Shown piece by piece: positions 27,001 through 30,000 of a DNA stretch of 64,000 bases (the stretch's first letter is position 1; the number at the start of each line of letters is the position of its first letter). This DNA comes from a plasmid. The stretch lies in assembly GCF_056712565.1 (NCBI RefSeq), contig NZ_JBWXXM010000003.1; one strand, given 5' to 3'. Made by a program: the position numbers.

Positions 27001-30000
27001 GTGTTTTTGAGGTGCTCCAGTGGCTTCTGTTTCTATCAGCTGTCCCTCCTGTTCAGCTACTGACGGGGTGGTGCGTAACGGCAAAAGCACCGCCGGACAT
27101 CAGCGCTATCTCTGCTCTCACTGCCGTAAAACATGGCAACTGCAGTTCACTTACACCGCTTCTCAACCCGGTACGCACCAGAAAATCATTGATATGGCCA
27201 TGAATGGCGTTGGATGCCGGGTAACTGCCCGCATTATGGGCGTTGGCCTCAACACGATTTTACGTCACTTAAAAAACTCAGGCCGCAGTCGGTAACCTCG
27301 CGCATACAGCCGGGCAGTGATGTGATTGTCTGCGCTGAAATGGACGAACAGTGGGGCTATGTCGGGGCTAAATCGCGCCAGCGCTGGCTGTTTTACGCGT
27401 ATGACAGTCTCCGGAAGACGGTTGTTGCGCACGTATTCGGTGAACGCACTATGGCGACGCTGGGGCGTCTTATGAGCCTGCTGTCACCCTTTGACGTGGT
27501 GATATGGATGACGGATGGCTGGCCGCTGTATGAATCCCGCCTGAAGGGAAAGCTGCACGTAATCAGCAAGCGATATACGCAGCGAATTGAGCGGCATAAC
27601 CTGAATCTGAGGCAGCACCTGGCACGGCTGGGACGGAAGTCGCTGTCGTTCTCAAAATCGGTGGAGCTGCATGACAAAGTCATCGGGCATTATCTGAACA
27701 TAAAACACTATCAATAAGTTGGAGTCATTACCGTGCACGGTAACGGGCCATATCAATGAGCAGTTCCTCTCCAATTTTATTTGCCCCTAGAGAGCGGCGA
27801 GTTTTCTTCACTTCAATGACAATCTTCTCTTTCTTCAGAAGAAAATCCTGTCTGGATGATGAACCTGCGAAGCTAGGTGAATTTTCTTCAGGTCTGACAT
27901 CATTAAAATGCAGCAGCAGAAGAGCATGAACAAGATCCTGTACATCATACTCGTCATTAATTTCAAGCGGCGTTCTGTCATTGTATCGTTGCTTTAATTG
28001 ACGACAAAAAGCTGGAAATTTATTGAGTATATTTATAATCAAATCCAGTTCGGCATGTTTTGTTGCTATAGTCGATGCCGTGCCGGAGTAAGTTAAATCG
28101 TCTCTGGCTGCATCAAAAATAGGTTTGTAATGTCTAACCAATCCCTGATAATTACTAGACCAAGCAATCCTTTGTGTATCATTAAAATCTTTGTAGTAAT
28201 CAGATTCCTTTCCATAACTGTCTTCAAGTAACTTTTTTGCTCTTGCAATCCAGTTATTACCTTTAGCCGAATCAATATATTCCTGGCTTCTGTGACTAAA
28301 TGCACTTGTTCCCATATATTTTGTCGACATGACAGAATTGTACTCTTGTTCAAGCACTTCAAATCTTTCAGCTAAGGTCTTCTTCGTCATAGCGCAATCC
28401 AAATTATATGCTAATAATACCTGTGAATTTTAATATTCTACCATATCTGGCTTTCTTCCGTTCACATTGGACATTCAGGTAATTTCGTCCAGTTCTGCTG
28501 GCTGTGCTGGAGCTAGCCTGGTATAATTTAACCAGCCATTTCAACAGCGGTGGTGTCTTATGAACGTCAAGAACATGTTTTACGGTGCCATTCTGGTAAG
28601 TGCTGTATGGGCGGTTATTTTGCTCTCATGGTTTGAATCCAGCCTTACCTTAAGCGATTACCTCAGGTACGAATCGGTAATCCTGATCCCATGCCTGCTG
28701 TGGGTTGCTGTTTATGGGTTAGGTAAACGTTACCTCCAAAGAACATCAAACTAGCCGCGCCAGCGACTTTTTTTACACCTTCGTTTAATTCCCTGGCTCA
28801 CCTGGACAGCCAGGGAATTCTGCCCAGCGCTACTGGCTTGCTGTGCCAAACTTTCCGTTGCAGATTTCCTCATTCACAATGGCCTGAAACATGGAAACAG
28901 AATTTCTAGCCTTATCCCTCAGTGCATTAATGAGTTCTGTGTCGTGTATTTTGTTGTAGAAAATGAAAGTAGAAACATCAAACTGGAGTTTAAATGCTGC
29001 TTTCCTTATGGCTAAACCTGACGTGATCGTTATCTCATTATGTATGCGAAGATAGGCAAGATAATCATCGTTATTTGCTTCACACTGCTCATATAAATAT
29101 TTTTGCATGAGAGATTGAGACAAGGCCAGAAATTCCACATATCGTTTGGTTTTTATTTCTTTATCTTTTAATCCCTGTACTGCCGCTTCTTTTTTTAATT
29201 CGTGCTTTTGTGTTAGCTTAAGAGTCAGCCACCCCCCTAAAATAGTCAGCAACGACCCCAAACCTATTTTTACGGCATTATCAGCCACATCCACCCACTC
29301 AGTCGCCATCTGTTACTCGTTCTTCCTGTGATGATCATGGTTGCCAGTATAATTCCAGCACAGACTGGACGTACAGCATTTTCTGTCCAGTAGACAGACT
29401 GTTACACTCAGGATAGGATAGCTTCTATGGTTAAATTTCCAGGTGAAGTTATGAGTTCGTCCGCTGCTGTAACCGTTATAACTGGTGTTCTTGTTTTTGT
29501 TGGTGGTCAGCTCATTGTAAAGAGCGCGATTGAACCTTATATAGAATTCAAGAAACAATTGGGAAAAATATCAAATCTGCTATTAGCTAACCAAGCTAAA
29601 TTAGCTAATCCTTGTGCTGTTGAAATGTCTGAGATCATCCATGAGTTGAAAGATGCCGCAGCTCAGTTAATGTCGAAGCATTCAGCTTTGCCTTTCTATA
29701 TCAAAAAATTCCATATCGGATTCCGCTTTGTTCCATCAACGCCTGAAATTATTAGTTCGGCGCAAAAATTGAATTTGATAGCATCAATACATGAAGGTAA
29801 AAGCAAGGAAAGTACATATGAGCACATAGCCGAGATTGGACGTATGCTCAAAATCCCAACCACCTATTCTCTTTAATCTTCACGCCGATCAGATTACATA
29901 ATCCACGCGCCACCTGGACATTCAGGTAAAAAAGTCCAACTGGTGAGGTTGGGCTTTTTGGCTTTCCGGTTCTGTTGGTGGCTATGACCGGAGAAAATTG

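Follow-up and report, generated by a model that had tools for sequence, protein, structure and literature searches.

Introduction

Long-B Argonaute systems use either nuclease or transmembrane (TM) effectors, and bAgaN is the nuclease effector of those known as BPAN systems (PMC10620215). Its D-EVK motif is reported to be essential for a Mn2+-dependent, non-specific DNase activity (PMC10620215; PMC13535254). On its own, the C-terminal domain of EcbAgaN (221–390) is toxic; in the whole protein it is kept autoinhibited by the N-terminal domain, and the segment 337–390 carries residues of the oligomer interface (PMC13535254). PF18742, the family of this nuclease domain, also appears among the effector variants of Detocs (bioRxiv 10.1101/2023.01.24.525353). 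Here, we describe a gene for a PF18742 nuclease that has been truncated by a copy of the insertion sequence IS1, together with the three genes for small membrane-anchored proteins next to it (orf64, p159 and p149), in a 64 000 nt stretch of an Escherichia coli plasmid (RefSeq assembly GCF_056712565.1, contig NZ_JBWXXM010000003.1), hereafter the window. EcbAgaN (PDB 23wq) is the sole relative of this nuclease with a solved structure.

The arrangement of the genes can be compared with two further systems. Sedentary integrons carry compact defence genes, and attC sites are used to mine integrons. In IncN plasmids, co-oriented CUP repeats lie ahead of successive small operons and are substrates for rearrangement (Delver & Belogurov 1997, as cited in PMC5371602), and the account given there puts them at 240–650 bp, with a promoter and an ArdK operator (PMC5371602). 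A preliminary description of the stretch had seen in the nuclease gene and its neighbours the kind of context in which phage-defence or abortive-infection modules occur, here partly decayed.

Location and mosaic structure of the segment

The window is a region of a ColV-type E. coli virulence plasmid, and the queried stretch is 100% identical to many plasmids of avian-pathogenic and extraintestinal E. coli, including pECOS88 and pAPEC-O1. The four genes form the left end of a 6.2-kb AT-rich segment found downstream of iucD-iutA and enclosed by the last two of the three IS1 copies in the window. The G+C content of this segment is 39.5% versus 51.5% in the iuc/iut region, in keeping with the AT-rich, IS-flanked island recognized in the preliminary description. 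The features that define the segment are:

10675–11442, minus strand, IS1
22935–24212, iucD, upstream of the segment
24294–26495, iutA, upstream of the segment
26965–27732, plus strand, IS1 (IS1A-like, labelled IS1A family transposase in RefSeq; 768 bp with canonical ends GGTGATGCTGCC...GGAGTCATTACC), the right end of which truncates the nuclease gene
27733–28390, minus strand, nuclease pseudogene (open reading frame, ORF, as called mechanically, 27728–28402), with a helical N-terminal domain and a PF18742 restriction-endonuclease-fold domain, retaining residues 1–219 of 263
28560–28754, plus strand, orf64, encoding a 64-aa two-TM protein of IncX4-type backbone (two hydrophobic segments; not annotated by PGAP)
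28830–29309, minus strand, p159 (WP_000190053.1), with one N-terminal TM helix and then a helical bundle, for which a cytoplasmic location is predicted
29451–29876, plus strand, p149, 141 aa from a conserved Met (M9, at 29451; mechanical ORF from 29427), an N-terminal TM helix and a four-helix bundle (phrog_7512)
33974–34741, plus strand, the second IS1, closing the segment

Homology with other replicons was found to break at the gene borders, giving separate blocks for the nuclease gene (27733–28484), orf64 (28467–28827), p159 (28803–29391) and p149 (29349–29892), and the genes are in mixed orientation (−, +, −, +). The first three blocks match the backbone of IncX4 plasmids, with 99.8% identity over 1,658 bp (27733–29390) to pE2022-3 and OW967979 P4. 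The gene order in IncX4 is TopB-Hha-H-NS-218 aa-(97 aa)-intact 263-aa nuclease-orf64-p159-tyrosine recombinase-ParA. Identity to IncX4 stops at 29366–29390, in a degenerate copy of a short motif described below, and IncX4-like sequence is back from 33111. As IncX4-like sequence is present on both sides, p149 (which is missing from IncX4), the gene for a 500-aa protein (p500) and the agrB/dqlB cassettes constitute an insertion relative to IncX4. In one IncX4 variant (AP026741), orf64 is kept and the nuclease gene and p159 are both absent.

We conclude that the four genes probably represent the left end of what remains of a plasmid cargo array, a 6.2-kb remnant caught between two IS1 copies, and not an operon-like module. 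A piece of IncX4 backbone with the intact nuclease gene, orf64 and p159 would have been captured on a ColV plasmid. Within the ColV lineage, an IS1-associated deletion has stripped the last 44 codons of the nuclease gene. Each gene is a separate mosaic block, bounded by a co-oriented copy of the boundary motif.

No 9-bp target duplication flanks the IS1 at 26965–27732, which indicates that an IS1-associated deletion or rearrangement, rather than a simple insertion, removed the end of the nuclease gene. When the flanks of all IS1 copies in the window were compared, no 9-bp duplication pairing any two of them, as in a composite transposon, was detected. Of the complete E. coli genomes searched (5,426), 91 carry the nuclease gene with an intact 3' end, on a plasmid every time, and 199 carry the IS1-truncated ColV form.

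The IS1 that truncates the nuclease gene has sitA next to it in pECOS88, but in the window and in OZ547100 it borders the region downstream of iutA. Such a difference would fit an inversion of the sit-iuc-iut block, flanked by the oppositely oriented IS1 copies at 10675–11442 (minus strand) and 26965–27732 (plus strand).

A short motif at the gene borders

A 25-bp imperfect palindrome, TGGACAyTCAGGTAATTCTGTCCAG, is common to the block junctions. The window includes four copies, against 0.03 expected by chance, and a degenerate fifth, all on the plus strand and at gene borders:

28468–28492, plus strand, copy 1 (TGGACATTCAGGTAATTTCGTCCAG), between the nuclease gene and orf64; homology breakpoints at 28484 and 28467
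28803–28827, plus strand, copy 2, between orf64 and p159; breakpoints at 28803 and 28827 coincide with it
29366–29390, plus strand, copy 3, degenerate (TGGACGTACAGCATTTTCTGTCCAG), between p159 and p149, where IncX4 identity ends
29915–29939, plus strand, copy 4, downstream of p149, overlapping the 3' end of an AgrB-like small RNA gene
33112–33136, plus strand, copy 5, where the IncX4-like sequence resumes

Conservation reaches about 20 bp further upstream (GTTTAATTCCCGC), so that the element measures approximately 25–50 bp. A 51-mer consensus was found in 2,723 places, spread over 1,482 plasmid records. These belong to Enterobacterales and are mostly conjugative plasmids, save for a few weak partial matches (e.g. 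20 nt in a Pseudomonas plasmid). Shuffled sequence gave no matches, and 1.1 Mb of control loci gave six at up to six mismatches. No description of the motif sequence, or of the stand-alone PF18742 family considered below, was found in the searchable literature.

In ten further plasmid loci, the motif was intergenic, present at each gene border and in the same orientation throughout an array. The IncX4 array has the order motif-nuclease-motif-orf64-motif-p159-motif-recombinase, and an array in Klebsiella and Citrobacter plasmids has the order motif-p159-motif-293 aa-motif-FRG-motif-AbiD-motif. Arrays are also present in IncX1, in pETEC_35 and in three further IncF-type plasmids. Copies are located at 6004, 6909, 7243 and 7806 in locus L109 and at 5325, 6483, 7569, 8627 and 10188 in L089, and the further loci bearing the motif are L003, L086, L107, L112, L113 and L115–L117. 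Wherever the locus retrieved includes both partition genes and a site-specific recombinase gene, the array is located between them. The recombinase is of the serine type (Resolvase, PF00239) in some plasmids and of the tyrosine type (Phage_integrase) in others.

Units delimited by the motif, namely the 880-bp nuclease unit and the p159 unit of about 540 bp, recur in different arrays. Variants differing by the presence or absence of a unit keep a single motif copy, and the crossovers are at the motif edges. This suggests that these are arrays of single-gene cassettes. They resemble integrons in consisting mostly of single-gene units split by a short, co-oriented, imperfect palindrome beside a site-specific recombinase gene, in that one unit can be found in different arrays and positions, in that variants keep one site, and in a cargo rich in single-gene defence systems. 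They differ in that the motif has no attC features, IntI is absent, the recombinase is of the serine or tyrosine type, gene orientation is mixed and exchange of units is predicted from sequence comparison.

Several established elements were considered as an identity for the motif and rejected. An integron array was excluded by the lack of IntI and attI, of a GTTRRRY core or attC features in the motif, by recombinases belonging to Resolvase or Phage_integrase, and by the mixed gene orientation. A stable hairpin was rejected as only one of six copies folded better than shuffled sequences. Because the types of partition system and of recombinase differ among plasmids that share the motif, a ParB or centromere site or a res subsite is also an unlikely identity. 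Finally, no copy of the motif is present in the IncN plasmid R46, and the CUP repeats of R46 showed no BLAST similarity to the arrays in the window or L089. The motif and the CUP repeats are alike in being co-oriented repeats in a plasmid accessory region that act as substrates for rearrangement, but the motif element is much shorter, is not consistently upstream of the genes and has a different sequence.

It is nevertheless quite possible, though short of probable, that the motif serves as the operator of a regulator encoded by plasmid or host, or as some other regulatory element comparable to the CUP repeats, and that the modular look is due to ordinary homologous recombination between operators. 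The arms of the motif (CTGGAC/GTCCAG) make up a dyad of the kind usual at sites of dimeric repressors, genes in the same orientation as the motif begin 37–218 bp downstream of it, and the CUP repeats, which have the same layout, also mediate rearrangements. The use of a serine recombinase in some plasmids and a tyrosine recombinase in others argues against one dedicated enzyme, and the lack of consistently favoured hairpin formation also sits well with an operator. However, the nuclease gene and p159 point the other way, placing the motif at their 3' ends. The strict co-orientation of the motif per array, the position of the breakpoints within or at the edges of 25 bp, the retention of exactly one copy in presence/absence variants and the lack of similarity to CUP are also not what an operator predicts.

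A tentative and, as matters stand, unlikely proposal is that crossovers take place at the motif in a cassette-exchange system not described before, which would follow the logic of integrons with another site and no IntI, shuffling single-gene conflict systems among IncX, IncF and other plasmids. The cargo shuffled in this way may include the stand-alone restriction endonuclease, AbiD, FRG/PDC-S15, an OLD-like ATPase, p159, p149 and DinQ-type toxin-antitoxin cassettes. As the recombinase differs between plasmids, several mechanisms are candidates: exchange may be due to a dedicated site-specific system, to recombination over short homology, or to an operator that doubles as a recombination substrate.

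The small membrane proteins

The preliminary description had portrayed the three small proteins as a 64-aa two-TM protein and two helical proteins with one N-terminal TM helix each, none of a recognizable family, and this was borne out. The orf64 product has two hydrophobic segments, and p159 and p149 each have a single N-terminal hydrophobic helix. In the AlphaFold models of p159 and p149 (predicted local distance difference test scores of 81.5 and 81.0, respectively), the TM helix runs into a helical bundle. Basic residues after the TM helix predict a cytoplasmic location for both bundles under the positive-inside rule. The p159 and p149 families are narrow, being confined to Enterobacterales, and no Pfam domain was detected in either, nor in any of ten representatives sampled from the clusters that a deep profile search with the p159 family returned.

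The orf64 gene is 192/195 nt identical to its counterpart in the IncX4 variant AP026741, where the flanks are only about 80% identical, and a homologue with 36% identity is found at the equivalent position in an Edwardsiella plasmid. As the ORF is conserved beyond its flanks and in position, orf64 is probably a real backbone gene. An extended −10 sequence (TGGTATAAT) is located upstream of it at 28519–28527.

In the p159 family, the N-terminal 55 or so residues (with invariant W5, D10, K14, G16 and G18) are common to about 250 cluster representatives, many of which share nothing beyond them, and the C-terminal parts differ, which suggests that the membrane segment may be the functional core. 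A relationship between p159 and p149 was rejected (profile-profile probability 0.5%). PHROGs includes no family for the p159 relatives, and p149's phrog_7512 has no assigned function. The name 'peptidase M14' attached to the p159 family in databases is wrong, as Pfam and NCBIfam give it no support.

Relatives of p159 and p149 were found in a variety of mobile elements. In Klebsiella and Citrobacter plasmids, p159 relatives are downstream of a resolvase gene and near genes for the 293-aa endonuclease-domain protein, FRG and AbiD, and in IncX1 one adjoins an OLD/AriA-like ATPase gene. Others are located between integrase and ParA genes in Enterobacter plasmids, at the att-proximal end of a Serratia prophage, or on the opposite strand between gpV and gpS in P2-like prophages. 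The p149 relatives are beside a small helix-turn-helix gene in phage-plasmids of about 48 kb, in pETEC_35, and in phage D6 between humD and phd/doc. No p159 match was found in a collection of isolated phages, nor was a nuclease match.

The V/S moron slots, att-proximal ends and phage-plasmid slots are typical sites of exclusion and defence genes. One example of a site for morons or superinfection-exclusion genes is orf30 of P2, a non-essential slot located between S and V. The p159 relatives in P2-like prophages match phage morons in being single genes on the opposite strand between gpV and gpS, as do the p149 relatives in occupying accessory slots of phage-plasmids and D6, and both proteins are small and membrane-anchored. 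They differ from characterized exclusion proteins in having no similarity to them in sequence or fold.

Given the repeated lone occurrence in moron slots and in defence-rich cargo arrays, p159, p149 and orf64 are most likely involved in conflict between mobile elements, for example in superinfection exclusion or membrane-acting defence, although this is a weaker inference than that for the nuclease. Each would be an autonomous small inner-membrane protein acting alone. It is somewhat unlikely, but a serious alternative, that they have no part in such conflict and are plasmid housekeeping or host-interaction factors, for instance in membrane stress, conjugation-related exclusion or colonization, hitch-hiking in the cargo. 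In searches of PADLOC-DB v2 at E≤1, orf64 and p159 had no match and the only match of p149 was to a CARF model at chance level (E=0.022), and fold searches with the small proteins returned generic four-helix bundles with no link to any defence protein. In addition, orf64 behaves as part of the IncX backbone, and ColV cargo consists mostly of iron-uptake and fitness genes. Hitch-hiking is less easily reconciled with the placement of p159 relatives in the V/S slot of P2-like prophages and at a prophage end in Serratia, with that of p149 relatives in phage-plasmids and D6, and with the AbiD, FRG and OLD-like genes that flank p159 on plasmids.

The nuclease

The mechanical ORF encodes 224 aa from a TTG start, but homologues and the RefSeq annotation begin at the ATG at 28390, leaving 219 native residues. 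The domain composition given in the preliminary description, a helical N-terminal part and a nuclease-type C-terminal part, was supported by a match to PF18742 (REase_DpnII-MboI; E=1.6e-33, 115.9 bits with a cut-off of 27, profile positions 3–106 of 150). PF18742 was the only Pfam family to match at E≤1, and no family dedicated to DpnII did so. The protein also matches phrog_29450 and the PADLOC model Aga_Helical-REase (4e-23). The 378 positions of the PADLOC profile were covered up to 332 by the window copy and up to 362 by P0001, an intact homologue of 263 aa that is 99% identical to the window copy.

The acidic and lysine residues first singled out, E147/D149 (DEYDVQDL), D182 (RQDFLL) and E193-V-K195 (IEVKK), are invariant in an alignment of 12 homologues, and D182, E193, V194 and K195 align one-to-one with D298, E309, V310 and K311 of EcbAgaN. 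The family therefore belongs to PF18742, with a score above the curated threshold of the family's hidden Markov model and a conserved D...(D/E)-x-K. The catalytic residues are encoded as follows:

27806–27847, minus strand, D...EVK motif, with D182 at 27845–27847, E193 at 27812–27814, then V194, and K195 at 27806–27808

At the IS1 junction, the stop codon (27728–27730) is wholly IS1 sequence, as had been stated, but the same claim for the final Arg codon applied to two of its three bases (27731–27732); base 27733 is native and represents the C of the original His220 codon. The removal of the native C-terminus was confirmed by comparison with intact homologues of 262–265 aa, from which residues 220–263 (44 aa), including the conserved PDCETLVCFVYDP...VVIAQF, are lost in the window copy. 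This segment is well conserved in the homologues (HPDCETLVCFVYDPEGW...VVIAQF), and the missing 3' end was not found elsewhere in the window, including beside the other IS1 copies. The PF18742 domain of the window copy is incomplete and does not have every core strand of the alpha-beta-beta-beta-alpha-beta fold. From this canonical topology, it would lack the fourth core strand and the C-terminal strand and, by analogy, the segment that forms the oligomer contacts in EcbAgaN. Having lost 44 residues that would contain the fourth core strand and that correspond to EcbAgaN 337–390, the ColV copy is most likely a dead pseudogene. RefSeq already lists it as such ('PD-(D/E)XK nuclease domain-containing protein; incomplete; missing C-terminus').

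Relatives of the nuclease were found as ORFs of 245–290 aa in 80 loci from very diverse phyla. Their C-terminal 150 or so residues are 50–61% identical and the N-terminal parts cannot be aligned; consistent with this, tblastn matches in distant phyla begin at residues ~100–120, with 50–61% identity. No recurrent neighbour was found in the 80 genomes, in which the best clusters were integrase (7/80) and Piwi (3/80). Neither the window segment nor the IncX4 and IncX1 contexts include a Piwi gene, and there is no methyltransferase gene beside the nuclease gene in the window segment or the IncX contexts or recurrently across the 80 loci. Because the N-terminal domains are unalignable, the C-terminal domain is conserved and neighbours do not recur, the family is a stand-alone protein that combines a lineage-variable helical N-terminal domain with a conserved effector nuclease domain. 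The name 'malate dehydrogenase' found in older public records of this family is spurious and has no support from Pfam or NCBIfam.

Like bAgaN, the nuclease is a two-domain protein that ends in a PD-(D/E)xK domain of the PF18742 or 'Helical-REase' type; the D-EVK residues of the two align, and the helical N-terminal domain of the nuclease is a plausible autoinhibitor. The two proteins differ in size (263 versus 390 aa), the N-terminal domains cannot be aligned, and no Argonaute gene is found beside the nuclease gene here, in IncX4 or IncX1, or in 77/80 relatives. With no adjacent long-B Argonaute gene and no N-terminal domain homologous to the Ago-binding domain of bAgaN, the nuclease is not a member of a BPAN system. 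In the Detocs variant the same domain, which the nuclease matches far above the gathering threshold, is an interchangeable immune effector domain, but its fusion partner in the nuclease is a small helical domain instead of a response-regulator receiver, and the last ~44 profile positions are missing from the window copy.

By analogy with bAgaN, the family may function as an autoinhibited non-specific DNase. The intact nuclease would be a stand-alone, single-gene conflict system in which the variable helical N-terminal domain holds the conserved, metal-dependent DNase domain autoinhibited until an invader-derived cue releases it, as modelled on gating by the N-terminal domain of bAgaN.

Some findings weigh against this interpretation of the nuclease. 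Sequence similarity to EcbAgaN is confined to about 80 residues of the nuclease domain (E=0.004, stronger by profile), which makes autoinhibition by the N-terminal domain an analogy, and alignments to EcbAgaN and the PADLOC Aga models span only residues ~101–248. PADLOC recognizes the shared domain only, and a defence role of the stand-alone family is putative. As for the ColV copy, neither the promoter region nor any catalytic residue has been lost through the truncation, and residual activity or a dominant-negative role is possible.

That the nuclease is instead a solitary type II enzyme of the DpnII/MboI kind, cutting unmethylated GATC with the host Dam methylase in place of a cognate methyltransferase, appears highly unlikely. 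The Pfam family bears the name REase_DpnII-MboI, 263 aa is a typical size for a type II enzyme, Enterobacterales hosts are Dam+, and the carrier plasmids would gain from the destruction of unmethylated incoming DNA. The missing methyltransferase gene, which this explanation can accommodate, means that the gene is not part of a standard type II restriction-modification pair, where the cognate methyltransferase gene adjoins that of the endonuclease. However, no dedicated DpnII family was matched, the domain is 50–61% identical across phyla that include many not known to use Dam, methyltransferase genes do not recur as neighbours, and the closest characterized relative, bAgaN, is a non-specific DNase. 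A variable N-terminal domain joined to a conserved C-terminal domain also suits a sensor-effector arrangement better than a sequence-specific enzyme.

Co-occurrence of the four genes

To be a functional module, as the preliminary description had envisaged, the genes would be expected to co-occur across diverged genomes, and they did not. When 84 loci of nuclease relatives were searched with tblastn over 10 kb on each side, orf64, p159, p149 and p500 were not found near any outside ColV DNA. The intact nuclease gene has other neighbours, with the order ParA-resolvase-nuclease-AbiD in an IncX1-like setting and the H-NS, Hha and TopB backbone genes in IncX4. The nuclease, p159 and p149 genes were each found alone in other elements, namely IncX1 and IncX4 plasmids, P2-like prophages and phage-plasmids. 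Outside ColV plasmids, nuclease-orf64-p159 is contiguous only in IncX4. Co-function within that lineage is conceivable, but at 99.8% identity the contiguous stretch is the same piece of DNA and does not amount to independent conservation. As the genes lack co-occurrence in the 84 loci, occur alone elsewhere and are separated by breakpoints at their borders, a single functional module is not supported.

Thus, although the genes are adjacent and compact, three of them are contiguous in IncX4 too, long-B Argonaute systems use either nuclease or TM effectors and the surroundings are defence-rich, the idea that the nuclease and the three membrane proteins are one multi-gene abortive-infection or defence system, now partly decayed, with the membrane proteins as sensors or effectors, is largely refuted and scarcely credible in view of the absence of co-occurrence (0/84 loci) and of any recurrent neighbour (80 genomes), the lone occurrence of every gene, the mixed orientations, the boundary motif and homology breakpoint between each pair, and the IncX4 plasmids that lack p149 or have orf64 without the nuclease gene or p159.

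What stands of the initial proposal is the defence-type setting, with an immune-effector domain (PF18742) in the nuclease and sister arrays carrying AbiD, OLD-like and PDC genes. Decay is limited to the nuclease gene, and the other genes of the stretch are intact. PADLOC, proposed for all four proteins, recognized the nuclease through a component model of another system but gave no real match for the other three.

Other array occupants and neighbouring cargo

Sister arrays include genes with matches to AbiD (3e-59), FRG/PDC-S15, OLD/AriA/GajA, PDC-S28 and effector endonucleases. In L089, the gene at 6593–7474 (minus strand) encodes the 293-aa protein, the N-terminus of which matches models of CBASS/Shedu-type effector endonucleases (PDC-M68A, 1e-22). 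In L086, a gene for an OLD/AriA/GajA-like AAA_15 ATPase (6616–8517, plus strand) is directly downstream of the p159 homologue, and one for a PDC-S28 helicase (1053 bits) is found at 9789–12320 (plus strand). These are candidate defence genes.

The remaining features between p149 and the second IS1 are:

29926–30012, minus strand, AgrB-like antisense small RNA, a degenerate-looking cassette (Rfam RF02891, 46 bits with a gathering score of 40, E=1.5e-5)
30049–30093, five copies of a perfect 9-bp tandem repeat (CGCCTTTAA)
30502–32004, plus strand, p500 (WP_000715081.1, 'hypothetical protein'), 500 aa, 32% G+C
32389–32477, minus strand, agrB-like small RNA (Rfam RF02891, 64 bits)
32790–32885 and 33708–33803, plus strand, dqlB toxin ORFs (DinQ-like)
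32955–33103, an element of ~150 bp, directly upstream of a boundary-motif copy

The p500 protein is a tandem duplication, with halves that are 32% identical (E=3e-25). Each unit is an AetD-like domain of the heme-oxygenase-like diiron oxidase type (E=8e-18 to the AetD structures 8ji2, 8zvg and 8twn), and there was no match to Pfam, NCBIfam or PADLOC models (the last at E≤1). It is thus a putative oxidase, a neighbouring cargo gene outside any nuclease module.

An AgrB-type antitoxin RNA and a DinQ-like toxin ORF, which together define a DinQ/AgrB type I toxin-antitoxin system, are both present in the segment, and predicted cassettes of this type punctuate the cargo array. The AgrB-like copy at 29926–30012 has no obvious intact toxin ORF. 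The dinQ/dqlB cassettes are also found in IncX1 and IncF arrays (L086, L113 and L116).

The ~150-bp element was found with 72–73% identity beside different cargo genes, at 950–1098 in L002, 5508–5656 in L108, 8720–8869 in L089 and 8733–8881 in L106 (the AP026741 locus). In IncX4 it adjoins the nuclease gene at its 3' end, and in L089 it lies between the FRG and AbiD genes.

With one query, near-identical ColV plasmids gave lengths of 2792, 2801 and 2810 bp, varying by about 9 bp either way at 30049–30093. These differences suggest that this is a variable-number repeat.

Implications

The feature itself is largely ordinary, consisting of an already-annotated pseudogene and hypothetical cargo genes on well-sequenced virulence plasmids, and the names 'malate dehydrogenase' and 'peptidase M14' should be dropped from databases for the nuclease and p159 families. 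Beyond the ColV copy, there is a widespread stand-alone family that joins a helical domain to a PF18742 nuclease, in effect the effector domain of bAgaN without a partner gene, and it is intact on IncX4 and IncX1 plasmids. The intact IncX nuclease (WP_000163250.1 in IncX4) lends itself to study as a candidate single-gene defence system, carried by the type of plasmid responsible for spreading mcr-1.

Of greatest interest are the arrays of single-gene cassettes that the motif appears to delimit. Such arrays offer a testable account of how compact defence cargo may be assembled and exchanged between the partition and resolution loci of enterobacterial plasmids. If cassette exchange is real, p159, p149 and orf64 would be new defence or exclusion proteins, each encoded by one gene and acting at the membrane, and the motif could be used, like attC, to mine plasmids for new single-gene defence and exclusion systems.

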